Below, piece by piece: positions 5,859 to 56,835 of a stretch of DNA of 64,000 nucleotides (positions are counted from its first letter, which is position 1; every line of letters begins with the position of its first letter). Source of the stretch: Acidobacteriota bacterium (GTDB taxonomy: Bacteria; Acidobacteriota; Polarisedimenticolia; Gp22-AA2); assembly GCA_046758905.1 (NCBI GenBank), contig JBHIBC010000002.1, positions 16,648 to 80,647 on the forward strand. Reading direction: 5' to 3'. Under the pieces are notes generated by a model that did no database searches, was not told where the DNA came from, and saw only the letters and a list, made by a program, of their open reading frames with translations. The position numbers were made by a program, and so were the translations under genes.

Positions 5859-7085
5859 GTGCTGCTGCTTCTCCCCACGACCACCTACCACGCGCGCGAT
5901 TTCGTCGAGGCGGCGCACCGGCTGGGCGTCGAGACGGTGGTGGGGTCCGAGAGGGCGCAGGCGCTCGAGCCGCTGCAGCCGGGGGGCACCCTCACCGTCG
6001 AGCTGGGCTCCCCCGAGCGGGCCGCCGAGCGGATCGCGGAGTTCGCGCGCCGGCGGCCGCTGCGCGCCATCGTGCCGACCGACGACGGGACCGCGGTGGT
6101 GGCCGCGGTCGCGTCCCGGCGACTGGGTCTCCCGCACAACCCGCCGGAGGGGGCGCGCGCGGCGCGGCGGAAGGACGAGCTGCGCCGGCTCCTGCGCGCC
6201 TCCGGGGTCCGGACCCCCGGGTGGCGCCTGGAGCCGGTGGGCGCCGACCCCGCGGCCGCGGCGGCGCGCGCTGGCTATCCCTGCGTCCTCAAGCCGACCT
6301 TTCTGGCCGCGAGCCGAGGCGTGATCCGCGCCGACGGCCCGGACCAGTTCGTCGCCGCATTCGGCAGGATCCGCGCGCTGCTGGCGCGGTCGGACGTGGC
6401 CCGGAAGGACGCGGACGCGGCGGGCATCATCCTGGTCGAGGAGTTCGTCCCGGGAGCCGAGGTGGCCGTCGAGGGTCTCCTCCTGCGGGGCCGGCTCAAG
6501 GTCCTGGCCATATTCGACAAGCCGGACCCGCTCGATGGCCCCTACTTCGAGGAGACGATCTACGTCACCCCCTCGCGGCTGCCGCCGCGGACGCGGGGGG
6601 CCGTCGTCCGGACCGCGAGAGCGGCGGCGAAGGCGATCGGCCTCGCGGAGGGCCCGGTGCACGCGGAGCTGCGGATCGGCCGGGGCGTCCCGTGGGTGAT
6701 CGAGATGGCGGCGCGGTCGATCGGCGGGCTGTGCTCCCGGGCGCTGCGGTTCGGGACGGGGCTGTCGCTCGAGGAGCTGATCGTGATGCACGCGGTCGGG
6801 CAGGACGTGAGCCGGCTGGAGCGCCAGCGCGAGCCAGCGGGGGTGATGATGATCCCGATCCCGCGCGCCGGAGTCCTGAAGGAGATCGGCGGACTCGCCT
6901 CGGCTCGGGCGGTACCCGGTGTCGTCGACGTGACGATCAGCGCGACGCTCGGAAGGCCGCTGGAGCCGCTACCGGAGGGGTCGAGCTACCTCGGTTTCAT
7001 CTTCGCCCGCGGCCACCGTCCCGAGGACGTGGAGGGCGCGCTGCGCGAGGCGCACCGCAGGCTGTCGTTCGCCATCGAGCCCTAA
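5859..7085 (+). CDS. ATP-grasp domain protein (carboxylate-amine ligase-like)
   Basis: YPCVLKPTFLAASRGVIRAD..., LVEEFVPGAEVAVEGLL and IFDKPDPLDGPYFEETIYVTPS are ATP-grasp B/C-domain motifs. GTG start at 5859 is the first start codon in frame after the gltA stop. Confidence 0.7.
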   Translation: MLLLLPTTTYHARDFVEAAHRLGVETVVGSERAQALEPLQPGGTLTVELGSPERAAERIAEFARRRPLRAIVPTDDGTAVVAAVASRRLGLPHNPPEGARAARRKDELRRLLRASGVRTPGWRLEPVGADPAAAAARAGYPCVLKPTFLAASRGVIRADGPDQFVAAFGRIRALLARSDVARKDADAAGIILVEEFVPGAEVAVEGLLLRGRLKVLAIFDKPDPLDGPYFEETIYVTPSRLPPRTRGAVVRTARAAAKAIGLAEGPVHAELRIGRGVPWVIEMAARSIGGLCSRALRFGTGLSLEELIVMHAVGQDVSRLERQREPAGVMMIPIPRAGVLKEIGGLASARAVPGVVDVTISATLGRPLEPLPEGSSYLGFIFARGHRPEDVEGALREAHRRLSFAIEP

Positions 7086-8115: not shown

Positions 8116-9612
8116 TCAGAACCCGGCTTCGGGCGAGCGCGCGGGGTCCAACTGACCCTCCATCGGCTCGGCTCAGCAGAACCAGGGCTCGGACAGGCGC
8201 GGCGGCCGCCCCCGGTCGCGCCGCGGCGGTGGATGGAGGAGGGCGTCGGGGGACGGCGCGGGCGACTCGCCCCCGGCGCGCGCCGTGGCCGAGCGGATTC
8301 GCAGGAAGGTCAGGCGCGGGTCCTCGCGCGCGCGGGCGGCGCGCTCGACGATGGCCGCCACGTCCTCCTGGAGGCGGTCCACGCGCGCGTCGGGGTGGGT
8401 CCAGAGAAAGGTGTGACGGCCGGCGTCGAGCGGGCCGAGGAACGGCCGCACCTCGGGCCGATCGTTGAGCAGCGAGCCGGGCGGCAGCAGCAGGCGGATG
8501 GAGAGCTGCACCGGGTCGAGGTGGTCGATCAGGTCCCGGCGCTCCACGAAGTCGAGCAGGTCGCGGTGGTCCTCAAGGGTGGTCCAGGGCGTGAACGGGA
8601 CGAGGGACGGCCGCAGCGCCAGGCCGGCGTCCCGGGTCAGGGCGAGCGCCAGCTCCACGTCGGCGCGGGTGTGTCCCTTGTCGAGGATGGCGAGGACGCG
8701 GTCGCTCAGCGACTCGACCGCCGAGACGACGAACAGGCAGCCGAGCCGGGCCATCTCGGGGAGCAGGCCACGGTATCTCAGCAGGTGCGCGACCTTGGCC
8801 GTGAAGTCGAACGTCAGCCGCGGGAATTCGTCGTGGAGCCGCCGCAGGATCGCCATCGAGTGACCGGGACCGTTCAGGAAGTCCGGATCCCCGATCGTGA
8901 TGTGCGTCGCGCCGGCGGCCACCTGGCCCCGCGCGTCGGCCAGCACGACCTCGCGCGGCACGACGAAGAGGCGGCCGCCGTACACCGGAGGGATCGGGCA
9001 GTGCCGGCAGCCGTGCAGGCAGCCGCGGCTCGCCTCGAGGTGGCCGGCGATGCGGGTCGCGCCGTCCTGCTCGAGCCGCGCGTACCGATCGAGCGGCCGG
9101 AGCAGGCCCCGGTACGGCACCTCGAACCGGATCCTCCGGATCCAGGGTGGCTCGTCGGCGCCCCTCACGCGGACCCCGGGGATCGGCCCCGTCCCGCCCC
9201 GGTCCAGGCGCCCCGCCAGTCGGAGGAGCGGCTCCTCGTACTCGCCCCCGACGATCGAATCGGCCCCGCGCTCGAGAAGCGTCGCGGCGTTGAGCGACGC
9301 GTACAGGCCGTAGTAGCACAGGTGGCATGCGGGGTTGATCGCCCTGATCCGGTCCGCGACCCGCGACCCGAGCCGCAACGCCGTGTGCATCGGCACGGCG
9401 ACCGCGACCAGCCGGGCCGCCGCCACCGCTTCCGGGCGCAGGCGATCCACCGCGAGGTCGATCGCCTCGGGGGCGTATCCGGCGCGGCGCAGCAGGGCGG
9501 CCGGGGACGCGATCGACAGCGGCTGGTGTCCGAGCTCGTAACAGGAGATCAGCAGGATCGCGCCGGGTGCTCGGAGGGGCCTGGGGGTGTCGATCCACGC
9601 GGGAAGCCTCAT
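8116..9612 (-). CDS. B12-binding-domain radical SAM selenoprotein, CUAEP-tail family (in-frame UGA=Sec at 8173..8175; naive ORF 8176..9612)
   Basis: Radical SAM CxxxCxxC motif (SRGCLHGCRHC). N-terminal B12-binding-like domain (AILLISCYELGHQPL...). The minus-strand frame reads ...EPWFC-TGA-AEPMEGQLDPARSPEAGF-TGA, i.e. C-U-A-E-P. ATG at 9612 checked in sequence. Confidence 0.72.
8144..8159 (-). other. candidate SECIS-like hairpin 14 nt downstream of the Sec UGA (mRNA GGGUC-AGUUG-GACCC)
   Basis: 5-bp GC stem with a GU-containing apical loop at a spacing compatible with bacterial SECIS. Not folded computationally. Confidence 0.3.
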
Positions 9613-9644: not shown

Positions 9645-9935
9645 CTACTTGGAGGGCTGGTAGTAAGGGTTCGTGCCGCCGGCGTGATCGGTCTGATCGA
9701 CGACCCCGGAGATCTGGGGGATCTCCTCCTTGAGGGTCGCCTCGATCCCCTGTTTCAGGGTCACGTTCACCATCCCGCACCCCTGGCAGCCGCCGCCGAG
9801 CATCAGGTAGACCACGTTCTGCTTGACGTCCAAGACCTCGACGAAGCCGCCGTGGCCGGCGATCGCGGGGTTGATCATCTCGTCGATGATCTTCTGGACT
9901 TTCTCCTTGACGGCGCTGTCGTCCAGAGGCTCCAT
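9645..9935 (-). CDS. NifU-like (Nfu-type) Fe-S cluster scaffold domain protein
   Basis: 96 aa. GGCQGCGMVNVTLKQGIE is the CxxC Nfu C-terminal domain signature. The track's 556-aa ORF 9645..11315 is a composite. Confidence 0.85.
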   Translation of the reverse strand: MEPLDDSAVKEKVQKIIDEMINPAIAGHGGFVEVLDVKQNVVYLMLGGGCQGCGMVNVTLKQGIEATLKEEIPQISGVVDQTDHAGGTNPYYQPSK

Positions 9936-10093: not shown

Positions 10094-11095
10094 TCAGCCC
10101 CGGGGCCGGCGCGGCTCCCATGGGTACATCGCGGCGACCTGCTCGGCGTACCCGTTGAAGATGCGGGTCGGGAGGACCTCCCCGGTGTCGATCCGCCGCT
10201 CCGTTGCCTGCGACCAGCGCGGGTGCGGCACGTTGGGATTGACGTTCGCCCAGAAGTCGTACTCGTCCGAGGAGTCGCTCCAGAAGGTCGAGGGCCGACG
10301 GGCAACCAGCTCGATCCTGACGATCGACTTGATGCTCTTGAAGCCGTACTTCCAGGGGACGACGAGGCGGATCGGCGCGCCGTGCTGGGCCGGGAGGGCG
10401 TGGCCGTAGATGCCGGTGACCATGAAGGCCAGCTCGTTGCGCGCCTCCTCGAGGGTCAGCCCCTCGTAGTAGGGCCAGGGGTACCAGCTCATCCGCCTCT
10501 GGCCCGGCGCCTGCTCGGGCCTGAGGAAGGCGAGCATCCGCACATGCCTCGCCGCCGAGCGCGGCTCGACGCTGTCGATAAGGGCGCGGAGCGGGAAACC
10601 GGTCCAGGGAACGACCATCGACCAGGCCTCGACGCAGCGGAAGCGATAGACACGCTCCTCGAGGGGAAAGGACCGGACCAGATCGTCGATGTCGAAGGTC
10701 CGCGGTCGGTGGCACAGGCCGGCGACCTCGACCTCCCAGGGTCGCGTCTCGAAGCGCTCCACGTGCCGCCAGACGTCCTTCCGCTCGGTGAACTCGTAGA
10801 AATTGTTGTGCCGTGCCGCGACCATCTCGTCGGTCGGGGGCGCTGCGGCGACGTACTCCGGACGTCGCGGGGCGGGGTAGAGGCCGGGACCTCCGGGGGG
10901 CGGGTCGGGCGGAGCGTCCGACCCGGCGCCGGCCCCTCGCGAGGTGGGCGGGGAACAGCCGAGGAGCAACGCAGCGGCCCCGATCCCCAGTTGGCCCATG
11001 TCCCGCAGAAAGCGGCGGCGGTCCCGGCAGGCCGATTCGGGCGTCGAACACGACTGCGGGATCTCCCACGGGCGCGGCACCCTGATCAGGGGCAT
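10094..11095 (-). CDS. msrP: protein-methionine-sulfoxide reductase catalytic subunit MsrP (YedY-type molybdoenzyme), TAT signal with lipobox-like LLGC
   Basis: TAT motif RRRFLRDMG then AAALLLGC. NNFYEFT, RFRCVEAWSMVVPWTGFPL and PWKYGFKSIKSIVRIEL are typical of MsrP. ATG at 11095 verified. Confidence 0.85.
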   Translation of the reverse strand: MPLIRVPRPWEIPQSCSTPESACRDRRRFLRDMGQLGIGAAALLLGCSPPTSRGAGAGSDAPPDPPPGGPGLYPAPRRPEYVAAAPPTDEMVAARHNNFYEFTERKDVWRHVERFETRPWEVEVAGLCHRPRTFDIDDLVRSFPLEERVYRFRCVEAWSMVVPWTGFPLRALIDSVEPRSAARHVRMLAFLRPEQAPGQRRMSWYPWPYYEGLTLEEARNELAFMVTGIYGHALPAQHGAPIRLVVPWKYGFKSIKSIVRIELVARRPSTFWSDSSDEYDFWANVNPNVPHPRWSQATERRIDTGEVLPTRIFNGYAEQVAAMYPWEPRRPRG

Positions 11096-11276
11096 GGCTC
11101 GACTCCTCGAGAGGGGCGGGCGAGCGGCCCGCCGCCCCATGCGATAGAATACCGGCACCCGCGCTGCCGGGAACAGAGAATCCCGCGGCAGCGCCTCCGA
11201 CCGGGGCCCGGCGCGTCCGCCCCGGCGCCGGTGAGGTCGCGGCCCGGGAGCGCGACGGCCGCGCGGGCGCGCACGC

Positions 11277-11879
11277 GTGCCACGTCATCGAGAGGCCCGA
11301 GTGAGGTTCGTCCACGAGATCATCGCCCTGGCGATCCTGCTCCTCGGGGCTGGGGCGATCGCCGTCGTCCCGCGCGATCTTCCCTCCTCCGCGGCGGCCG
11401 ATCCGGCGGCGTCACCGCCCGCGCCGATCGGGCCCGGGGACCTCTCGGCGGGGGCCGTGCCCCCCGCCCCCCGGAGCCCGCAGCCGGCGGTCCACATCCT
11501 GGAGCAGGATTCCCCGGCCATCGGCTCGGACGACGTGCTATCTCAGGCCGTGGGCGTCGAGATGCCGCGCGGCGCCTTCCTGCCGGTCCTCGAGGCGGGA
11601 TCGGTCCAGCCGGCCACCGGGTGGAAGGCGTTCAGGACGGCCTCGCCGGGGCAGGAGGAGATCCGGCTGCACGTCCTGCGGGGACGCTCCGATCGGATCG
11701 AGGAGAATCACTCCCTCGGATGGGTCCGGATCGGCGACCTTGAGCCGGGGCCACGGGGGCTGGTCGGCGCGGTCGTCTCCCTGAGGATCGTCGACGGCAA
11801 CATAGTCATGGCGGCGGTGGACGCCTTCTCGAGGAGGCCCGCCACCGTCCGGCCCATCGCTCCGCCCGCGGGGCGCTGA
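11277..11879 (+). CDS. hypothetical membrane-anchored protein
   Basis: 200 aa. N-terminal TM (IIALAILLLGAGAIAVV), Pro/Ala-rich linker, then a conserved-looking C-terminal domain. 12 nt upstream of the exonuclease gene. Confidence 0.45.
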   Translation: MPRHREARVRFVHEIIALAILLLGAGAIAVVPRDLPSSAAADPAASPPAPIGPGDLSAGAVPPAPRSPQPAVHILEQDSPAIGSDDVLSQAVGVEMPRGAFLPVLEAGSVQPATGWKAFRTASPGQEEIRLHVLRGRSDRIEENHSLGWVRIGDLEPGPRGLVGAVVSLRIVDGNIVMAAVDAFSRRPATVRPIAPPAGR

Positions 11880-11890
11880 AGTCGGGAACG

Positions 11891-12469
11891 ATGCCCGGGA
11901 CGATCTACTTCAGCGTCGATGTCGAGGCGTCGGGCCCCGTCCCGGCGCTTTACAACCTCGTCTCGATCGGCGCCGTGCCGGTGGTGCGGCGGACCGAAGG
12001 GTGGCGGCCGGACGACGGCCGGTTCTACGTGGAGCTCCGGCCGATCGCGGCGGGCTTCGACCCGGAGGCGATGGCGGTGCACGGCATCCCCCGGGAGCGG
12101 CTGGAGAGGGAAGGCGTGCCGGCCGGCGAGGCGATGCTCCGGCTGACCCGCTTCGTCGAGGGGCTGTCGGGCGGCGCCCTGAGGCCGGTCTTCGTCGGAC
12201 ACAACGCGGTCTTCGACTGGGCTTTCATCAGCTACTACTACGAGGCGCACGGCCTGCCGAACCCTTTCGGGTACAAGGCGCTGGAGCTGAAGTCGTTCGC
12301 GATGGGGCGTCTCGGGATCGACTGGCTCGAGACCGGGAAGGAGACGCTGCAGCGCCTGCTCCCCTCGCTTCCGCCTGAAGATCCGTCGCTGGTCCATCGC
12401 GCCGACTACGACGCGCTCTACCAGGCCGAGATCCTCTGCGCGCTGCTCAACCTGCCGGATCGGACCTGA
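11891..12469 (+). CDS. DEDDh 3'-5' exonuclease (DnaQ/epsilon-like)
   Basis: Exo I (YFSVDVEASG), Exo II (VGHNAVFDWAF) and Exo III (YHRADYDALY) motifs of a DEDDh exonuclease. Confidence 0.8.
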   Translation: MPGTIYFSVDVEASGPVPALYNLVSIGAVPVVRRTEGWRPDDGRFYVELRPIAAGFDPEAMAVHGIPRERLEREGVPAGEAMLRLTRFVEGLSGGALRPVFVGHNAVFDWAFISYYYEAHGLPNPFGYKALELKSFAMGRLGIDWLETGKETLQRLLPSLPPEDPSLVHRADYDALYQAEILCALLNLPDRT

Positions 12470-12506
12470 CTCCGGGCGGCCGCCTGCGCGGATGTTAGGA
12501 TAGGTC

Positions 12507-13220
12507 ATGCCCGGGGCGGAGCAGGTCGCGGAATTCGCCATCTGGTACGTCGTCTTCATCCTCACGCTCACGCTGCACGAGGGAGCGCACGCCCTGGTCG
12601 CGAGGCTCGGAGGGGACGATACCGCCTACCGGGGCGGGCAGGTCTCGCTCAATCCCTGGCCGCACATCCGGCGGGAGCCGTTCGGCACGGTCCTCGTCCC
12701 GTCCCTGACCTTTTTCCTCTCGGGCTGGATGATGGGGTGGGCCTCCGCGCCGTACGATCCGGTCTGGGCCCGACGCTACCCGCGTCGACAGGCGGCGATG
12801 TCGGCGGCCGGACCGGCCGCCAACCTCGTGCTGGCGGCCGCGGCGTTCGCGGCGCTGCGCCTGCTGCTTGGGGCCGGAGTCTTCGTCCCGGCGGACGTGC
12901 TCCGGTTCGGGTCGGTGGTCCAGGCGGCGCCCGGGACCCCCCCCGAGTCGCTGGCGCACGCCCTCGCCTTCGGGCTGTCGGTGGGAATGAGCCTGAACAT
13001 CGTGTTGTTCTTGTTCAACCTGATACCGCTGCCGCCGCTCGACGGCAGCGGCGTCCTGCAGGGGCTGGCGCAGGGCCGGGTGAGCCGCTTTCTGGAGGGC
13101 GTGGCGGCCAGCCCGATGATGTCGCTGGTGGGCCTCGTCCTCGCGTGGCGGATGGCCGGCATCATCCTGCCGCCCGCCTTCGCCGTCGTGGTGACGCTGC
13201 TTTACAGGGGTCTGGTCTAG
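12507..13220 (+). CDS. site-2 protease family (peptidase M50) membrane metalloprotease
   Basis: HEGAH (HExxH) in the first TM helix, a polytopic membrane protein and the LNLIPLPPLDG motif. Confidence 0.85.
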   Translation: MPGAEQVAEFAIWYVVFILTLTLHEGAHALVARLGGDDTAYRGGQVSLNPWPHIRREPFGTVLVPSLTFFLSGWMMGWASAPYDPVWARRYPRRQAAMSAAGPAANLVLAAAAFAALRLLLGAGVFVPADVLRFGSVVQAAPGTPPESLAHALAFGLSVGMSLNIVLFLFNLIPLPPLDGSGVLQGLAQGRVSRFLEGVAASPMMSLVGLVLAWRMAGIILPPAFAVVVTLLYRGLV

Positions 13221-13231
13221 GGAGGTCCTCC

Positions 13232-14668
13232 ATGTCGCGATTCCGCCTGGCGGGGGCGCCGCTGCTCGGCGCGGCGCTGCTCGTCGCCCCGCCGGCTGCT
13301 CACGGCTCCCGAGGGACGCCGTTCGAGGTCGGCAAGCCGTTCCCCGGCCTGGTCCTGCCGTCGGCGGCGGACGGGCGGCCGATGTCGCTGGAGCAATTCC
13401 GCGGCCGCAAGGTGCTCCTGCACATCTTCGCCTCCTGGTGAGCGGGCTGCCGCGTGCACGTGCCCGGGTGGCACGAGGCCGTTCGGTCGCTGGGGATCGG
13501 CGATCGCCTCCAGATGGTGGGGATCCTGCAGGAGCAGCATCCCGATCGGGCGCGGCTGTTCATGCAGTGGAAACGGATGGACTGGCCGCTGCTGGTCGAT
13601 TCCTTGGGCCTGCTTGGGGTGCCGTACGTTCCGATCACGCTGGCGATCGACGAGGGCGGCATCGTGCGCCGGATCGACCCTCCCCTCGCCTCTCCGGACG
13701 AGCTGAAGTCGACCTTCGTGGAGCGGCGGTTTCCGGGCGGCGAGGAAGGGCCGTCGCGGCCGCCGTCCGCCCCCGACCTCGAGGAGCTGTGTGCGGCCGC
13801 CGCCGAAAGGGGCGCGGCGGGGTGGCGCGCTTGCGCGGACGCCCTGTTCCTGTGGGGCGGGCCGCGCCGGCTCGACGAGGCCATCAGCCTGTACCGGAAG
13901 GCGATCGGAGCGGAGCCCGAGGACGGCGCGACCCACTTCCGCCTCGGGGTGGCGTACCGGGCCCGGTACGATTCCGAGGGCCGGCGGCCGGGCGATTTCC
14001 GGAGGGCGGTCGAGGCCTGGGCGCGGGCGCTCCACATCGACCCGAACAACTACATCCGGCGGCGGCGGATCCAGCAATACGGTCCGCGGCTCGAGAAGCC
14101 GTACTCCTTCTACGACTGGGTCGCGCTCGCCAGGCGGGAGATCCGGGCGCGGGGCGAACAGCCCCTTCCTCTGATCGTCGAGCCGGGCGGCGCCGAGTTC
14201 GCCCGTCCGGCCGCGGCCTTCGCTCCGGCCGCCGCCGCGGCGGAACCCGACCCGGAGGGACGGATCGTCCGCGACACGAGGGGCTTCATCCGGGTCGAGA
14301 GCACCGTCGTCCCGCCGGCGATCGCACCGGGCACGGCCGCTCGGGTGCACGTCACGTTCACCCCGAACGCCGCCATCAAGGCGCACTGGAACAACGAGGT
14401 CTCCGACCTGCTGGTCTGGCTGAGCCCTCCGAACGGCTGGCAGGTCGAATCACGGCGCCACGCCTATCCCAACCCGCCGCAGCCCGTCAGCCGCGAAGTC
14501 CGCGAGGTGGAGTTCGAGGCCCGGGCCCCTGAAGGCGCCGTCGCGCGCCGGGCGACGATCTCCGGGTACGCCCTGTACTACGTCTGCGAGGACGTCAAGG
14601 GGACCTGCCTCTACCGCCGGCAGGACCTGGAGATCCCGGTGCGGGTCGGGGCAGCCGAGCGCAGATAG
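13232..14668 (+). CDS. secreted TlpA/ResA-like thioredoxin-fold selenoprotein (UxxC) fused to TPR repeats and a DsbD-alpha-like C-x6-C domain; in-frame UGA at 13439..13441
   Basis: RBS GGAGG then ATG 13232. Signal peptide MSRFRLAGAPLLGAALLVAPPAAHG. ...KVLLHIFASW-TGA-AGCRVHVPGW continues in frame (the track splits it into ORFs ending at 13441 and starting at 13454 in the same frame). Downstream thioredoxin-fold strand (VPITLAIDEGGIVRR), TPR-like helices (LGVAYRARYDSEGR...) and a C-terminal YYVCEDVKGTCLYRRQ pair. Confidence 0.7.
13457..13477 (+). other. candidate SECIS-like hairpin 16 nt downstream of the UGA (CACGUGCC-CGGGU-GGCACGAG)
   Basis: 6-bp perfect stem cgtgcc/ggcacg with a 5-nt GU-containing loop. 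Seen by eye only. Confidence 0.3.
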
Positions 14669-47827: not shown

Positions 47828-48025
47828 GTGCCCGAGCGCATCGCCGTTCTCCACGACACCCTACGGGACCGGCGGCAACCGGCCGACGCCGGCACGAACC
47901 GCGACGATGAGGTGCCGGGTGCTCGGGAGATCCGCCTTGCGGCGGTCGGTGGTCCGGGGTGCGCGAGCGGCCCGGCGGGCGCCGCCCGGCCCTCGGAGTC
48001 GGATCGACAGATGAGCCTCGTGTAG
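47828..48025 (+). CDS. small ORF (65 aa) with strong SD (AAGGGAG, 5-nt spacer, GTG) in the leader of the giant gene
   Basis: VPERIAVLHDTLRDRRQPADAGTNRDDEVPGAREIRLAAV... No recognisable family. Could be a leader peptide or spurious. Confidence 0.22.
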   Translation: MPERIAVLHDTLRDRRQPADAGTNRDDEVPGAREIRLAAVGGPGCASGPAGAARPSESDRQMSLV

Positions 48026-48312
48026 CGCAGGCCGGTCCGGCCAGCCTGGCGGTCGCCGGACCGTGGCCCTGCGCTCTCGTTTTGTCCCGGCCCGGGGCCG
48101 CTCCTGCCGCCGGAGGGGGAGGTTCTTCGGGACCGGTTCCCGAAGGATCGCCGGCGGCAGCAGCGACCGCGGGCGCGGGAGCGTCGGATAGGGCCCTCCG
48201 GGACCCGGCGGCGCCGGGGACGGACCGGGGAGGACGGCCGCTCCTGCGGCCCGGCGCACGCCACCGAAGGTGGTTGACGCAGCGGCGCGGCAGTCGTAAG
48301 AGGTTGTCCGTG

Positions 48313-51300
48313 ATGCGCCACGACGCGCCGCCCCGGGCCCGCGCGCGCCCGGCCCTGCTGCTGCTAGCCGCGATCGCCGGAACCTCGCCCGCGACGGCAG
48401 CGGATGCGGGCCCCTTCCCGGAACTCATCGGTTACGTCTACGTCAACGAGGGGACCACCGATCGCTCCCGACTCGCCGCGCCGAACGTCGTCACGGGCCT
48501 CGCGGCGTTCTCGGACGGTTCGCTGGCGCTGCTTTCCGGCTCGCCCTGGCCGACCGGCGGGACGGGGCCCGAGGGGGCGGTCTTCCTGGGCTCCCCGCGG
48601 GCGGGGATCTGCGTCGCGCGGCGCCGTCTGTACGTCGTCAATCAGGGAAGCGACGACATCGCGGCCTTCACCATCGGGGAGCACGGCTCGCTGACGGCCG
48701 TCCCGGGATCTCCCTTCTTCTCGGGCGGATCGAGCCCCGAGGCGCTGGCGGTCACGCCGGACGGCCGGTTCCTGTACGTCGGTCACACGGGTAGCCGCGA
48801 CCTCGCCGTCCTGTCCGTGGCGCCCGACGGCGGGCTGATCCCCGCGTCGGCGCCGATCGACCTCGATTCGGCGGTCGACGGCCTGGCGGTGACCCCCGAC
48901 GGCCGCTTTCTGATCGCCACGCTGCCGCTTTTGGCGCGGATCGCCGTGCTGGCGATCGCCGACGACGGGAGCCTCGCGCACGTGCCCGGGTCGCCCTTCC
49001 GCGGCGACGGCGAGACCACCGACGGCGTGTCGCTCGGCGCGGGCGGCGCGGACCTCTTCGTGGCGGTCGCCGACCCGTCGCGGCTGCTCGTCAGCCGGTA
49101 CCGGCTGCGCCCCGACGGGGTCCTGATCCGGATCCCGGGATCGCCGTTCTCCGGCCCCGGCGGGACCGCGAACATCGTGCACACCGTCCCGGGTGACCGG
49201 TTCCTGACGGCGTCGCTGCCCGCCCAAAACGCCGTGGCGGTCTTCCTGGTCGATCCCTCCGGCGGCTTGGTGCCGGCGCCCGGTTCGCCCTTCCCGAACG
49301 GTCCGCTCGGCACGAGCCCGGCGGGCATGGCTTCGGACCCGCTCGGCCGTCTCCTTTACGTGGCCGACACCCTGAGCGGCACGGTCAGCTCCCTCCTGGT
49401 GCGCGAGGACGGCCGGCTCGATCTGGCGGGGGACAGCGTCCGCACCGGCGTCGACGGACTGCCTCTCGCGAGCATCGTCTTCCTGCCGGCCGGCGACCAG
49501 GACGGCGACTTGGTGCCGGCGTCCTCCGACAACTGCCCCGCGGTGGCCAACCCGTCCCAGATCGACCGCGACGGCGACGGGCTGGGCGATCCCTGCGACA
49601 ACTGCCCTGAGGTCGCGAACCGGGGGCAGCGGGACGCCGACCTCGACGGTGCCGGGGATCCCTGCGACCCGGACCGCGACGGAGACGGCGTGGACGACAG
49701 CGCGGATCCCTGTCCCGACGTCGCGGATCCCGAGGGGGGCGATACGGACGGCGACGGCGTGGGGGACGCCTGCGACAACTGCCCCGACGACCCGAACCCG
49801 GATCAGGGCGACGTCGACGCAGACCTCATCGGGGACGCCTGCGACCGGCCGGCCATCCGGATCGGCTGGCTCTACGTGCAGACCGAGTCGCCCGAGAACG
49901 CCATCGCCGCGTACGAGGTGGACCTCGAGGGCCGTCTGCGCCGCCTGAGCGGCTCGCCGTTCCCGACGGGCGGGCTGGGGCCTGAGGGCAGCGCGGTGGC
50001 CCTGTTCGCGCCGCCGCGGCTGGCGGCGGGCCGGTTCCTGCCGGCCAGGCTGTTCGCCGCGAACCAGGGGAGCGACGACGTCAGCGTGTTCCGGATCGAG
50101 CAGGACGGAACGCCCGTCCCGATCCAGGGGTCGCCGTTCGCGAGCGGGGGCCGGCTGCCGGCGGGCCTGGCCCTGCACCCGAGCGGGCTGTTCCTCGCCG
50201 TGGCCAACCTGGGATCGCCGAATGTCGCGCTGTTCAACGTGAAGCCGGACAACCTGCAGCTCAAGAAGATCGCCGGCACCCCGATCCCGGTTCCGGGGCG
50301 GGTGAACGGCCTGGCGTTTCATCCGCGCGGCCGATTCCTTGAGGTCGGCCTGCCCGATCTGGGACGGCTGCGGGCCATACGCTTCGAGTCGCCTTTCCCG
50401 TTCGTGCCCGGCTCGACGATCGTCGACCCCGCCGGAGCGCCCGCCGGCTTCGCGTTCAACGGCGCCGGGGACCGCCTGTTCCTGAGCAGCGCCACGAGCG
50501 GGACCGCCAAGGTCAGCGCGTTCGCGATCGACGTCGAGGGTGTCGCCGAGCCGCTGCCGCGCACCACGGCGACCGGCGGCGGCTCCAACTCCAACGCCGT
50601 CGCTTTGGGATCGGGCGAGAGGTTCCTGTACGTCTCCAATCAGGCGAGCAACACCATCGACGTCTTCGGGGTCGAGGCCTCGGGAAGCCTGGTCCCGCAC
50701 CCCGGGACGCCGTTCCCGAACGCCCGCTTCGGCAGGACCCCCGTGGGGCTGACGATCGATCCCCTAGGGCGGTTCCTGTTCGCGGCCAACACCGCGTCCA
50801 ACAGTGTCTCCTCGTTCCGCATCCGGCCGGACGGCGGGCTCGAGCCCCTAGGTGCGGCGGAGAAGACGGGGGCCGCCCTGGGGCGGCCGCTCGGGGGGAT
50901 CGTCTTCCTCGGCGCGGGTGACGAGGACGGGGACGGGGTCGAGTTCGCGCTCGACAACTGCCCGGGCGCGCACAACCCGGGCCAGGAGGATGCCGACGGC
51001 GACGCCGTGGGGGACGCGTGCGACCGCTGTCCGGATCTGTTCGACCCGGCCCAAGTCGACTCGGACGGAGACGGCGCGGGCAACGCCTGCGACCCCGACC
51101 CCGACGGCGACGGTCTCGAGGGCGGGGAGGACAACTGCCCCGCGGACAAAAACCCGGGCCAGGAGGAGCGTGACGGCGACGGGCTGGGGGACCTGTGCGA
51201 TCGGTGCCCGGACGATCCCGCAAACGACGGCGACGGCGACGGGTCCTGCGCCGGGATCGACAACTGTCCTTCCATCGCGAACCCGTTCCAGGAGGATCAG

Positions 51301-53988
51301 GACCGCGACGGCGTCGGCAACGCCTGTGACAACTGTCTCACCTTCTTCAATCCGGACCAGATCGATTCGGACGGGGACGGCACCGGGGACGCCTGCCAGA
51401 TCGGTTTCATGCGGAACGGCTTCCTTTTCGTGAACGGCCTGTCTCCGCTGAACCGGGTCGCAGCCTTCGAGACCAAGGAGGGCGGCGCCCTCCTTCCGCT
51501 CAGCGGCTCGCCCAGGCTGACGGGAGGCTCGGGGCGGCAGAACGATCCGCCGCCGTCGGCCGCCCCGGGGCTGGCGCTGTCGGGTGGGGCGCCGCTCCTG
51601 CTGGCCGTCAATCCCGACTCGGGCAGCGTCAGCACATTCGTCGTGGGCGGCGACGGGGCCCTCACCGCGGCGCCCGGCTCGCCGCACCCCGTGGCGCTCG
51701 TCGACCCCCTCGGCCTGGCGCTGGCCCCGGGCGGGGGGCGGTTGTTCGTGGCCGGGACGCGCGACGGCGGCGGGGCGATCGCGACCCTCGATGTCGCCCG
51801 CTCGGGACGCCTGAGGGCCGCGGGTGACCCGATCCCGATCGGAGGCGTCGCCGACGGGATGGCGATCGCTCCCGACGGGTCGCTCTTGGCCGTAGCGCTG
51901 CCGGATTCAGGGCGCGTCTCGGTCTTCTCGCTCGGCGCGGGGGACGCGGCACCGGCGCCGCTGAGCGGGTGGCCCGCCCGGCTGCCGGGCATCAACCGCC
52001 CGGGGCCGCTCGCGTTCGCCGCCGAGGCCGGGGCAGCCGGCGCCCCGGAGGGAGCCTGGGTCCTGGTGGGGGGCGAGGCACCGCCGGGGCGCGCGGTGCT
52101 GTGCGCGGTGGAGGTGCGCGACTCGGGGCCGGTGCCTCGCGGGCGGATCGATCTCGGCGCCGACGGCGGGACGCTGGCGATCGCCGTCGACGCTGCGCGT
52201 GACCGCTCCTTCGTCACCCTGCCCGCCGCCGGAGCGGTCGCCTGGGTGGAGGGCCTCCTCGCGGGCGTGCCGGTGAGCGTGCCGGGCTCCCCGTTCGCCG
52301 TCCCAGAGGCTCTGAGCGTGCCGGCGGGCCTGGTGCTCGGGTCGGACGGCGCCTCGGTGCACCTCGTCGGCCGCGGATCGAACTCGGTCGCGACGCTCGT
52401 GGAGGTGGAGGGAGCCGGACTGGCCGCGGGGCCGAACTCCCCCATCCCGACCGGCATCCAGGCGGCCAACCCCTCCGCCGGCGTGATCTTCCTGGAGTCG
52501 TCGGACGATGACGGGGACGGGCTCGAGCGACTGGAGGACAACTGCCCGGGGGTGGCCAATCCGGGACAGGAGGACTCGAACGGCGACGGCGCCGGAGACG
52601 CCTGCCAGCCGGTGGTCGCCATCGCCCGGGTGGTGTCCGCCGAGCGGGCCTCCCCAGCCGACGAGAGCGGGGCGGGCCGGGAGACGATCCCGGTGCTGGC
52701 GGCGGCGGTGTCGCTGTCCGACCCGGACGGGCAGACGCTGCACGGGCGCGTCGTCGTGTCGCGCCTCGAGATCGGATCCTTCACGCTCGAGGACGCGGCG
52801 CTGGAGGGGGAGGGAAGCGACGGGGTCGACTGTGGGCGGACGCTGCCGCTGGACGAAAGGGCCGGACCGGGGATCGCCTACCTGAACGCATCGGCGGGGC
52901 GGCCGCTGCTCGTCGACCAGGACTCGGTCCTGGCCTGCGACGACGGCCTGCAGGACTATGAGCTCGCGGCGGGCGGATGCGATGGCCAGGACCCGGTCTT
53001 CTTCCCGATCCTGGCGCTGTCCGGGCTCCCGCCGCCGGCGGAGATCTGCGCGCGCGAGCGCGACGGCGACGGGCGCCGCTTCGAAATCAGGGTCGAGGCC
53101 ATCCGCGCGGACAGCGCCGACATCGTCGCGGAGCGCGCCCTGGCGCGGACAGTCGTGCCGTACGGCGGATCCGTCCTGCCCGGCGCCATCTCCCTCGAGG
53201 CCCTAGGCGACGCTCCGGCCGGCCCCGCCGGCCTTCCCCACACCCTGACCGTCACGGCCGCCGACGGCGACACGCCCGAAGCCCGGGACAGCGCGGGCTT
53301 CGCCTGGCGCGGCGAGTCCCTGCTGGTGTTCGGATCGCCCCCGGTAGCGGTGGGCCCCGGAGATCTGCTGACGGAGTGCACGGGGCCGGAGGGCGCGACC
53401 CTGACGCTCGACGGCTCCGATTCCTTCGACCCCGACGGCGGCCCGCTCTCGCACCGCTGGCTCGAGGTGGTGGAGGAGGGCACGGAGCGATTCCTCGCCG
53501 AGGGCGAGCGCGTCCAGGTCTCCCTGTCGTTGGGCGCTCATCTTGTGGTGCACCTCGTGCAGGACTCGGACGGTCTGCTGGCCGAGCAGCGTTTCACCGT
53601 CACGGTCGCCGACCGGCTGCCTCCGGAGGCCACCGCCCGTGCCGTCCCGCCGGTGCTGTGGCCGCCCGACCACGCCCTAGTCCCGGTCCGCGTCGTGGTC
53701 GACGCCCGGGACGCCTGTTCCGGCACGGTGGAGATCCGGCTGCAGAGCGTGGCGAGCAGCGAGAGCGACGATGCTCCCGGGGCAGGGGACGGTCGGACCA
53801 GCGGCGACATCCGGGAGGCCGCTCTCGGGGAGGACGACCGCGATCTTCTGCTGCGCGCCGAGCGCTCCGCTCCGGGGCCGGGACGGACCTACCGCCTCGT
53901 CTACCGCGTCGCCGATCCCTCGGGCAACGCCGTGAGCGTCCGGATCGAGGTCGAGGTCCCCCTGTCCCGGCGCGAAGATGTCCCCTAG
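48313..53988 (+). CDS. giant secreted multi-propeller protein: repeated lactonase-type 7-bladed beta-propeller modules interleaved with thrombospondin type-3 (Ca-binding) repeat arrays
   Basis: ~1890 aa. Signal peptide (ALLLLAAIAGTSPATAADA). Recurrent propeller-like segments (FLYVGHTGSRDLAVLSV, LFVAVADPSRLLVSRY, LYVSNQASNTIDVF...). Three arrays of DxDxDGxGDxCDNCPxxxNPxQ TSP3 repeats. Confidence 0.85.
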   Translation: MRHDAPPRARARPALLLLAAIAGTSPATAADAGPFPELIGYVYVNEGTTDRSRLAAPNVVTGLAAFSDGSLALLSGSPWPTGGTGPEGAVFLGSPRAGICVARRRLYVVNQGSDDIAAFTIGEHGSLTAVPGSPFFSGGSSPEALAVTPDGRFLYVGHTGSRDLAVLSVAPDGGLIPASAPIDLDSAVDGLAVTPDGRFLIATLPLLARIAVLAIADDGSLAHVPGSPFRGDGETTDGVSLGAGGADLFVAVADPSRLLVSRYRLRPDGVLIRIPGSPFSGPGGTANIVHTVPGDRFLTASLPAQNAVAVFLVDPSGGLVPAPGSPFPNGPLGTSPAGMASDPLGRLLYVADTLSGTVSSLLVREDGRLDLAGDSVRTGVDGLPLASIVFLPAGDQDGDLVPASSDNCPAVANPSQIDRDGDGLGDPCDNCPEVANRGQRDADLDGAGDPCDPDRDGDGVDDSADPCPDVADPEGGDTDGDGVGDACDNCPDDPNPDQGDVDADLIGDACDRPAIRIGWLYVQTESPENAIAAYEVDLEGRLRRLSGSPFPTGGLGPEGSAVALFAPPRLAAGRFLPARLFAANQGSDDVSVFRIEQDGTPVPIQGSPFASGGRLPAGLALHPSGLFLAVANLGSPNVALFNVKPDNLQLKKIAGTPIPVPGRVNGLAFHPRGRFLEVGLPDLGRLRAIRFESPFPFVPGSTIVDPAGAPAGFAFNGAGDRLFLSSATSGTAKVSAFAIDVEGVAEPLPRTTATGGGSNSNAVALGSGERFLYVSNQASNTIDVFGVEASGSLVPHPGTPFPNARFGRTPVGLTIDPLGRFLFAANTASNSVSSFRIRPDGGLEPLGAAEKTGAALGRPLGGIVFLGAGDEDGDGVEFALDNCPGAHNPGQEDADGDAVGDACDRCPDLFDPAQVDSDGDGAGNACDPDPDGDGLEGGEDNCPADKNPGQEERDGDGLGDLCDRCPDDPANDGDGDGSCAGIDNCPSIANPFQEDQDRDGVGNACDNCLTFFNPDQIDSDGDGTGDACQIGFMRNGFLFVNGLSPLNRVAAFETKEGGALLPLSGSPRLTGGSGRQNDPPPSAAPGLALSGGAPLLLAVNPDSGSVSTFVVGGDGALTAAPGSPHPVALVDPLGLALAPGGGRLFVAGTRDGGGAIATLDVARSGRLRAAGDPIPIGGVADGMAIAPDGSLLAVALPDSGRVSVFSLGAGDAAPAPLSGWPARLPGINRPGPLAFAAEAGAAGAPEGAWVLVGGEAPPGRAVLCAVEVRDSGPVPRGRIDLGADGGTLAIAVDAARDRSFVTLPAAGAVAWVEGLLAGVPVSVPGSPFAVPEALSVPAGLVLGSDGASVHLVGRGSNSVATLVEVEGAGLAAGPNSPIPTGIQAANPSAGVIFLESSDDDGDGLERLEDNCPGVANPGQEDSNGDGAGDACQPVVAIARVVSAERASPADESGAGRETIPVLAAAVSLSDPDGQTLHGRVVVSRLEIGSFTLEDAALEGEGSDGVDCGRTLPLDERAGPGIAYLNASAGRPLLVDQDSVLACDDGLQDYELAAGGCDGQDPVFFPILALSGLPPPAEICARERDGDGRRFEIRVEAIRADSADIVAERALARTVVPYGGSVLPGAISLEALGDAPAGPAGLPHTLTVTAADGDTPEARDSAGFAWRGESLLVFGSPPVAVGPGDLLTECTGPEGATLTLDGSDSFDPDGGPLSHRWLEVVEEGTERFLAEGERVQVSLSLGAHLVVHLVQDSDGLLAEQRFTVTVADRLPPEATARAVPPVLWPPDHALVPVRVVVDARDACSGTVEIRLQSVASSESDDAPGAGDGRTSGDIREAALGEDDRDLLLRAERSAPGPGRTYRLVYRVADPSGNAVSVRIEVEVPLSRREDVP
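49510..49846 (+). repeat. TSP3-repeat array 1 (coding tandem repeats, gacaactgcccc... units)
   Basis: DNCPAVANPSQIDRDGDGLGDPCDNCPEVANRGQRDADLDGAGDPCDPDRDGDGVDD...DGDGVGDACDNCPDDPNPDQGDVDADLIGDACD. Confidence 0.8.
50918..51397 (+). repeat. TSP3-repeat array 2
   Basis: GDEDGDGVEFALDNCPGAHNPGQEDADGDAVGDACDRCPDLFDPAQVDSDGDGAGNACDPDPDGDGLEGGEDNCPADKNPGQEERDGDGLGDLCDRCPDD...DNCLTFFNPDQIDSDGDGTGDACQ. Confidence 0.8.
52501..52608 (+). repeat. TSP3-repeat array 3 (single unit)
   Basis: SDDDGDGLERLEDNCPGVANPGQEDSNGDGAGDACQ. Confidence 0.7.

Positions 53989-55482: not shown

Positions 55483-56835
<1,353 letters not shown>

Follow-up and report, generated by a model that had tools for sequence, protein, structure and literature searches.

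ArsL, a radical S-adenosylmethionine (SAM) enzyme of arsinothricin biosynthesis, cleaves the C-gamma–S bond of SAM to yield methylthioadenosine (MTA) and a 3-amino-3-carboxypropyl (ACP) species, and three cysteines in its tail bind As(III); removal of the tail abolishes C–As bond formation and spares SAM cleavage (bioRxiv 10.1101/2024.02.01.577332; 10.64898/2026.04.29.721666). In the mechanism put forward in a recent ArsL preprint, arsenic bound to the tail attacks an organometallic Fe-ACP intermediate. ArsL was reconstituted in vitro with SAM, reductant and arsenite, and cobalamin is unmentioned among the components. The NCBIfam family NF040546, ‘CUAEP/CCAEP-tail radical SAM (seleno)protein’, is among the rare CU-motif selenoproteins and is itself not well known in structure or function, and CU motifs have been tied to heavy-metal and organometallic chemistry (Haft 2022 preprint). 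Here, we analysed a protein that is almost certainly a member of this family and is encoded on the minus strand (positions 8116-9612) of a 64,000-nucleotide stretch of the Acidobacteriota contig JBHIBC010000002.1 (hereafter the window). Its gene is interrupted by an in-frame UGA codon that we read as selenocysteine (Sec, U). The Haft preprint was the sole paper we found that names the family, and no paper that reports a function for it was found, which agrees with an earlier annotation of the window made from the sequence alone (the first-pass annotation). A 2026 review that inventories prokaryotic selenoproteins includes other CU-motif and radical SAM selenoproteins but does not name NF040546 in its text (PMC13188914).

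By direct reading, the gene runs from an ATG at 9612-9610 through a TGA at 8175-8173 to a second TGA at 8118-8116. Read-through yields a protein of 498 residues with the C-terminus ...WF-C479-U480-AEP-(15 aa). Before the first TGA the frame closes with ...PRLSEPWFC, and past it the frame reads GCC GAG CCG ATG GAG GGT CAG TTG GAC CCC GCG CGC TCG CCC GAA GCC GGG TTC, then TGA, encoding A-E-P-M-E-G-Q-L-D-P-A-R-S-P-E-A-G-F. The features of the gene are as follows.

8176-9612, minus strand: radical SAM body, M1-C479 (NF040546 674.5 bits; Pfam Radical_SAM 40.1 bits; identical to MFQ5876182.1)
8998-9021, minus strand: CxxxCxxC [4Fe-4S]/SAM motif, C198-L-H-G-C202-R-H-C205 (direct reading)
8173-8175, minus strand: in-frame UGA read as selenocysteine U480 (codon comparison across 80 genomic loci)
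8144-8158, minus strand: predicted selenocysteine insertion sequence (SECIS) hairpin, GGGUC (8158-8154), loop AGUUG (8153-8149), GACCC (8148-8144) (covariation)
8116-8172, minus strand: 18 sense codons, AEPMEGQLDPARSPEAGF, and the true stop TGA 8116-8118 (conserved (A/S/T)-E-P)

The first-pass annotation had proposed read-through of the TGA at 8173-8175 to the TGA at 8116-8118, and every statement it made about the sequence matches our reading. The CLHGCRHC cluster motif that it reported was read at 8998-9021, and C198, C202 and C205 are invariant in family alignments of 22 and 52 sequences. The 535-aa open reading frame (ORF) called from GTG 9780 is the mechanical longest ORF and runs into an upstream NifU-domain gene. 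Translation most likely starts at ATG 9612, giving 479 residues before the UGA, because this start agrees with the GenBank call (479 aa) and fits the N-termini of homologues. The domain order is an N-terminal Rossmann (B12-binding-like) domain, the radical SAM core, a C-terminal helical domain, a linker and the tail motif. The linker is variable and rich in Pro, Ala and Arg, and carries a highly conserved RPPRLSEPWFC motif.

For scoring with hidden Markov models (HMMs), selenocysteine in the 498-residue protein was written as C. The protein matched NF040546 with 674.5 bits (E = 7e-203) over residues 19-489, spanning model positions 1-467 of 468. NF040546 is an equivalog model of 468 positions with a curated cut-off of 500 bits, and an HMM score of this size excludes chance for the family assignment. 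PF04055 (Radical_SAM) scored 40.1 bits against a threshold of 29.5. All the features listed for NF040546 are present: the score, the C-[U/C]-A-E-P tail and the CxxxCxxC motif. The first-pass annotation had named this family and pointed to the NCBI models as the place to look, and the model search bears it out. That the protein is an NF040546 selenoprotein is close to certain, and the full statement about it, with the inferred mechanism included, is highly probable, if a step less secure. Tail, CxxxCxxC motif and architecture are the same as in the family, with no substantive difference; the window tail has AEPM where the NF040546 consensus has AEPT.

The GenBank record MFQ5876182.1 is 100% identical to the protein over 479 aa, already carries the NF040546 family name and is cut at the UGA. 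The finding is thus already known and is a correct re-discovery, the family having been defined and named by NCBI and the protein named in GenBank. Its main value is that the curated NCBI model is confirmed and that gene callers, including the one behind the GenBank record of this metagenome-assembled genome, still cut the protein at the Sec codon, so that its last 19 residues are lost. Beyond this, the finding is of interest for a family with no reported function and its link to ArsL, for the evidence on the SECIS and the gene cassette, and for the cultured carriers of the Sec and Cys forms. The family is large, with at least 8000 database candidates at E <= 0.001 in many phyla. Among cultured organisms, the Sec form occurs on the megaplasmid of Thermomicrobium roseum DSM 5159 (NC_011961.1, 6953-8389; locus L081), which has a complete genome and reads ...ESWFC-TGA-AEPLEDPSGP..., and in Ktedonosporobacter rubrisoli (L063), while Thermogemmatispora carboxidivorans PM5 (L074) carries the Cys form.

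To the codon comparison we brought 80 related loci, one per genome, from Rokubacteria, Planctomycetota, Nitrospirota, Chloroflexota/Ktedonobacteria, Acidobacteriota, Gemmatimonadota, Poribacteria, Tectomicrobia and other phyla. The codon aligned with U480 is TGA in 55 loci and TGT or TGC in 22, and is lost at a contig end in the other three; none of the 77 resolved loci has TAA or TAG at this position. In these genomic loci an in-frame (A/S/T)-E-P always comes directly after the aligned codon. The best 120 homologues in the database fall into 98 whose last residues are ...W[FY]C and 22 that continue as ...WFCCAEPT..Q.... The UGA aligns with the second Cys of the CCAEP homologues, which is where the first-pass annotation had expected it to fall, and the 22 Cys-form genes that continue into AEP speak against that annotation’s own worry that every homologue might stop at WFC. 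Aligned at the nucleotide level, the codons past the UGA are fixed at positions one and two and vary synonymously at position three, and AEP(T)xxQ is kept; this pattern argues that the stretch is translated. The tails of the closest relatives (L086-L088) have 18 residues, AEPTEGQLDPLR...QF*. TGA is the commonest ordinary stop codon in the window. Reassignment of UGA is ruled out, because most ORFs in the window terminate at TGA. On this comparative evidence, the UGA at 8173-8175 is almost certainly a selenocysteine codon, and a predicted SECIS hairpin that lies within the coding sequence would direct its decoding. The family as a whole is mostly in the Sec form.

The predicted SECIS hairpin begins 14 nt past the UGA, as the first-pass annotation had described it. 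With the U of the UGA counted as column 1, its arms occupy columns 16-22 and 28-34 of the family alignment, and the loop is AGUUN. In the Sec forms (50 sequences), 81.1% of cells were paired compared with at most 62% in slid controls, and cells with a double change numbered 63, where column shuffles gave 27.6 +/- 4.3; none of 500 shuffles reached the observed number. In the Cys forms (20 sequences), only 40.7% of cells were paired, which is the shuffle level. Arm variants include GGGUC/GACCC, GGACC/GGUCC, AGAUC/GAUCU and GGGCC/GGCCC. These arm changes alter the encoded peptide (EGQLDP, RDQFGP, ADQLDL), so it is the RNA that constrains the protein at this place. The window hairpin also agrees with all four constraints that we took from the published bacterial SECIS model (PMC13188914), having a 5-nt loop with G and U at positions 2-3, a stem of 5 bp, 19 nt between the UGA and the loop, and an energy of -7.9 kcal/mol.

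Several observations weigh against selenocysteine at U480. The window hairpin has only 5 bp, with its two outer pairs mismatched, whereas many NF040546 relatives form 7 bp. The folding energy of 40- and 60-nt stretches is at the level of dinucleotide shuffles (z = +0.50 and -0.21) at a GC content of 72%; as thermodynamics alone is uninformative at such GC content, we took the support for the SECIS from covariation. RNAalifold on 60-nt stretches recovered four inner pairs only and no conserved lower stem. No selA, selB, selD or tRNA-Sec gene was found within the 64-kb window: ARAGORN detected no tRNA in it, a search of the whole window with Rfam at gathering thresholds gave no match and so no tRNA-Sec and no catalogued SECIS, and there was no Pfam match to SelA, SelB or SelD among the candidate ORFs of the window, which were chosen by high GC content at third codon positions (GC3), a coding signature in this GC-rich genome. 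Selenium in the protein is a prediction from the nucleotide and protein sequences.

Judged by sequence, ArsL is the closest characterised family to the window protein. The ArsL model NF040542 (RCCLKC-tail) was the second-best NCBIfam match at 293 bits, with all others at 41 bits or less. This alignment covers model positions 1-412 of 423 and leaves the tail positions unaligned. Over 404 colinear residues, the window protein shares 37% identity with an RCCLKC-tail protein from Bacillus cereus. Both families have a Rossmann-like domain, the radical SAM core and a C-terminal domain, and both end in a short Cys-rich tail. They differ in that the CU/CC-AEP motif stands on a linker that is about 50 residues longer, whereas RCCLKC follows directly after the core in ArsL. 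On plasmid pAH820_272 of B. cereus AH820 (NC_011777.1, 438-11206; L082), the ArsL-family gene ends ...FKRCCLKC* directly after the core and lies amid genes for ArsR, a MIP channel, GNAT, ACR3 and ArsC. The very unusual chemistry of ArsL makes the CUAEP family a good place to seek non-canonical SAM cleavage and a catalytic reason for the Cys-Sec pair.

To characterise the gene neighbourhood, we searched candidate neighbour proteins with tblastn against the 80 loci and the window. Two neighbours of the radical SAM gene in the window are relevant here.

9645-9935, minus strand: Nfu-type NifU-domain Fe-S carrier, 96 aa (PF01106 82 bits; NfuA C-terminal domain in TIGR03341)
about 5859-7085 (start approximate), plus strand: L-amino-acid-ligase-type (LAL) ATP-grasp protein (Pfam ATP-grasp_4, LAL_C2, ATPgrasp_N)

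The Nfu gene sits 32 nt upstream of the radical SAM gene on the same strand, and the two are probably co-transcribed. The LAL gene is one gene away on the opposite strand, and its product has weak NCBIfam matches to BacD and DdaF. Neighbours were counted only in those 41 loci whose flanks extend 4 kb or more in each direction, with the partner within 4 kb.

LAL ATP-grasp: 19 of 41 loci, same strand in 14
Nfu-type NifU-domain protein: 15 of 41 loci, all same strand
YggX-type Fe(II)-trafficking protein: 12 of 41 loci, all same strand
DUF169 protein: 7 of 41 loci, all same strand
Any of LAL, Nfu, YggX or DUF169: 32 of 41 loci
MsrP: 2 of 41 loci
Metallo-beta-lactamase (MBL) hydrolase: 1 of 41 loci

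Nfu and YggX never occur together, and 27 of the 41 loci have one of them adjacent. In Chloroflexota/Ktedonobacteria, the YggX-type gene lies immediately upstream of the radical SAM gene and replaces Nfu. The LAL gene is the commonest conserved neighbour, with orthologues (47-60% identity) in 35 of 81 loci from at least six phyla, and we found no paper linking it with CUAEP/CCAEP radical SAM genes. The typical cassette is radical SAM-Nfu-(DUF169)-LAL, seen in L001, L007, L010, L015, L040, L050 and others. In the literature DUF169 is mentioned only incidentally, once beside a Nitrospina HgcA-like gene and once in a list of co-occurrence with selenium. As in the window, Nfu lies directly upstream of the radical SAM gene in the three closest relatives (L086-L088; 64-67% identity). 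The genes for MsrP, an HSP70-like fragment, an RNase_T-family exonuclease and an M50 peptidase (10094-13220 in the window) recur in the same order in L086 and L087, which is synteny of the lineage without a functional link to the radical SAM gene. The first-pass annotation had listed a NifU-like scaffold, MsrP and an MBL hydrolase as the context of the gene. The first is a conserved neighbour, the other two are ruled out as functional context by their rarity in the counts and reflect synteny of the lineage, and the LAL gene had been missed. An ATP-grasp gene about 3 kb upstream of the B. cereus ArsL-family gene was rejected as a LAL orthologue, as it shows only 23% identity and a generic ATP-grasp similarity, and it is a weak parallel at most.

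We tentatively propose that the Cys-Sec tail has an ArsL-like role in the SAM/cluster site, a mechanism suggested by homology, as no close relative other than ArsL has been characterised. In this proposal, the flexible tail would swing into the SAM/[4Fe-4S] site, where it would serve as the ligand for a soft substrate or would itself be the nucleophile or H-atom donor. Selenium would make this step faster than sulfur does in CCAEP enzymes. An amino acid would result, and in about half of the genomes the neighbouring L-amino-acid ligase could take it over. The oxygen-labile cluster would be supplied or repaired by the partner, Nfu or YggX. An AlphaFold model of P0016, a natural Cys-form (CCAEP) homologue, is confident (pLDDT, the predicted local distance difference test, 90.1; pTM, the predicted template modelling score, 0.90) except for the last ~40 residues; its tail has pLDDT values of 62/76/54/52/42 per 10 residues, and these low-to-moderate values would fit a mobile arm.

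A broader and unlikely possibility is that the non-canonical radical SAM enzymes of ArsL type have a second branch, the CUAEP/CCAEP family, which is far more widespread. Its members might transfer the ACP group of SAM to a soft atom that the Cys-Sec tail either holds or itself contributes, so that a C–Se, C–S or C–metalloid bond is made, and together with LAL (and DUF169) might make a novel amino-acid or dipeptide metabolite. This reading draws on the ArsL homology, the mobile conserved tail and the presence of LAL in about half of the loci. If it is true, the phyla that make the metabolite would be mostly uncultured ones of soil, groundwater and the sea. For studies of the family in general, the covariation-supported SECIS model, the conserved gene set (Nfu or YggX, LAL ATP-grasp, DUF169) and the cultured carriers provide new handles.

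A number of points count against the ArsL-like mechanism. Membership in ArsL itself is rejected, as the NF040542 score of 293 bits is under the cut-off of 450, the tail is CUAEP and not RCCLKC, and the ars context is missing. There are no ars genes in the window or among the recurrent conserved neighbours in the 80 loci, which are instead Nfu or YggX, LAL ATP-grasp and DUF169, unlike the ArsL-family locus. The tail offers two chalcogens compared with the three As(III)-binding cysteines of ArsL. No LAL gene lies within 8 kb in L086-L088, the three closest relatives. No sequence determinant for C-gamma–S cleavage was found in the two ArsL preprints (bioRxiv 10.1101/2024.02.01.577332; 10.64898/2026.04.29.721666), and which SAM bond the window enzyme cleaves would not be readable from sequence.

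An alternative that we consider rather doubtful is that the Cys-Sec pair is a redox shuttle and not a substrate holder. The tail would then be a mobile selenenylsulfide/selenol arm that delivers an electron or H atom to quench a product radical, or that re-reduces the enzyme, with conventional 5'-deoxyadenosyl (5'-dA) chemistry in the active site. The vicinal Cys-Sec pair does end a variable linker that was modelled with low confidence, and position 480 is always Cys or Sec, as expected of a redox-active site. Mammalian thioredoxin reductase has a C-terminal Gly-Cys-Sec-Gly arm. In this larger redox enzyme, too, Cys and Sec are adjacent on an extension of the C-terminus that is flexible, but this is an analogy only, as fold and organism are unrelated, the SECIS is in the 3' untranslated region and Sec is the penultimate residue, whereas here 18 residues follow Sec. 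Most known bacterial selenoproteins are redox proteins (PMC13188914). However, the ArsL tail binds substrate without redox cycling and ArsL still cleaves SAM once the tail is deleted, the conserved neighbours include no thioredoxin or reductase gene, and CU motifs were tied by Haft to heavy-metal and organometallic chemistry. HgcA, SaoC/SaoB, MerT-like and KCU-star proteins share the rare adjacent Cys-Sec pair but differ in fold. Among the recurrent neighbours in the CUAEP/CCAEP loci, we saw no genes for mercury or organometal functions.

On a literal reading of the B12-binding domain named in the first-pass annotation, the protein would be a radical SAM methyltransferase of the cobalamin-dependent class B, or a B12 enzyme related to these, and the tail an accessory; we consider this quite unlikely. 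The Pfam B12-binding model PF02310 gave a weak match of 23.1 bits over residues 21-132, and there were weak NCBIfam matches to models of HpnR, glutamine C-methyltransferase and PhpK type. The whole-chain fold resembles OxsB, TsrM, MgmA, CysS and TokK. However, the PF02310 score is below the threshold of 32.1 bits, and the ArsL model scored 293 bits compared with at most 41 for every B12 family. In Foldseek searches with the P0016 model, the top solved fold was AprD4, followed by cobalamin-bound OxsB and TsrM, and MgmA (E = 5e-18 to 5e-16), with query-normalised template modelling scores of 0.55-0.67 and sequence identities of 15-20%. AprD4 has a B12-binding-like domain yet is not known to bind cobalamin. 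AprD4, OxsB, TsrM and MgmA are alike in fold but, unlike the window protein, have no CU tail. A sequence search of the PDB found no close solved relative, the best match being 9ccb (E = 6e-6). The absence of any mention of added cobalamin in the ArsL reconstitution also speaks against a cobalamin enzyme. The N-terminal B12-binding-like domain of the first-pass annotation is best taken as a resemblance in fold, given a Pfam score under threshold and AprD4 as the best fold match.

The chance is negligible that the UGA is a genuine stop, in which case the protein would end at ...WFC and the downstream conservation would come from something non-coding, for instance a terminator or a regulatory hairpin. 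The protein does end at Cys479 in GenBank and for all automatic gene callers, and TGA is the favoured stop in the window, but against this stand the lack of TAA and TAG at the aligned codon, the Cys-form genes that read through into the same AEPTxxQ, the codon-position pattern past the UGA, the reach of the NF040546 model to nine residues past CU, and the loss of the hairpin exactly where UGY replaces UGA.

A scan of the window for in-frame TGAs flanked by coding-like GC3 identified a second candidate selenoprotein gene.

13232-14668, plus strand, Sec codon 13439-13441: predicted redoxin UxxC selenoprotein gene (in-frame TGA; Pfam AhpC-TSA/Redoxin)

Its product has a signal peptide, an AhpC/TSA-Redoxin domain, a tetratricopeptide repeat (TPR) region and a C-terminal domain, and the candidate site reads ...RKVLLHIFASW-U-AGC-RVHVPGWHE... 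(UxxC). When U is replaced by C for scoring, the Pfam matches to AhpC-TSA and Redoxin are above threshold and span the UxxC site. The GenBank record MFQ5876189.1 has only the 404 aa past the UGA and is annotated as ‘hypothetical protein’. The best 120 homologues have about the length of the post-UGA part and cover about 80-85% of the query. In three distant loci (L083-L085), the in-frame TGA, the upstream frame and near-identical post-TGA RNA are all kept. The gene probably encodes a selenoprotein of the known ‘Prx-like/Redoxin UxxC’ kind in a long fusion architecture. With two independent conserved Sec codons 4 kb apart, the organism very likely decodes Sec.

The other TGAs from the GC3 scan (55483, 50640, 41800 and 20637) were judged to be adjacent genes or chance. 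The TGA at 55483-55485 on the minus strand is a single TGA between genes for cytochrome bd subunits I and II in the same frame, the second of which begins METIWF.... Elsewhere in the window, a 2025-residue ORF (47911-53988, plus strand) has thrombospondin type-3 repeats and lactonase/SGL beta-propeller domains, and is probably a large secreted protein that is unrelated to the selenoprotein.

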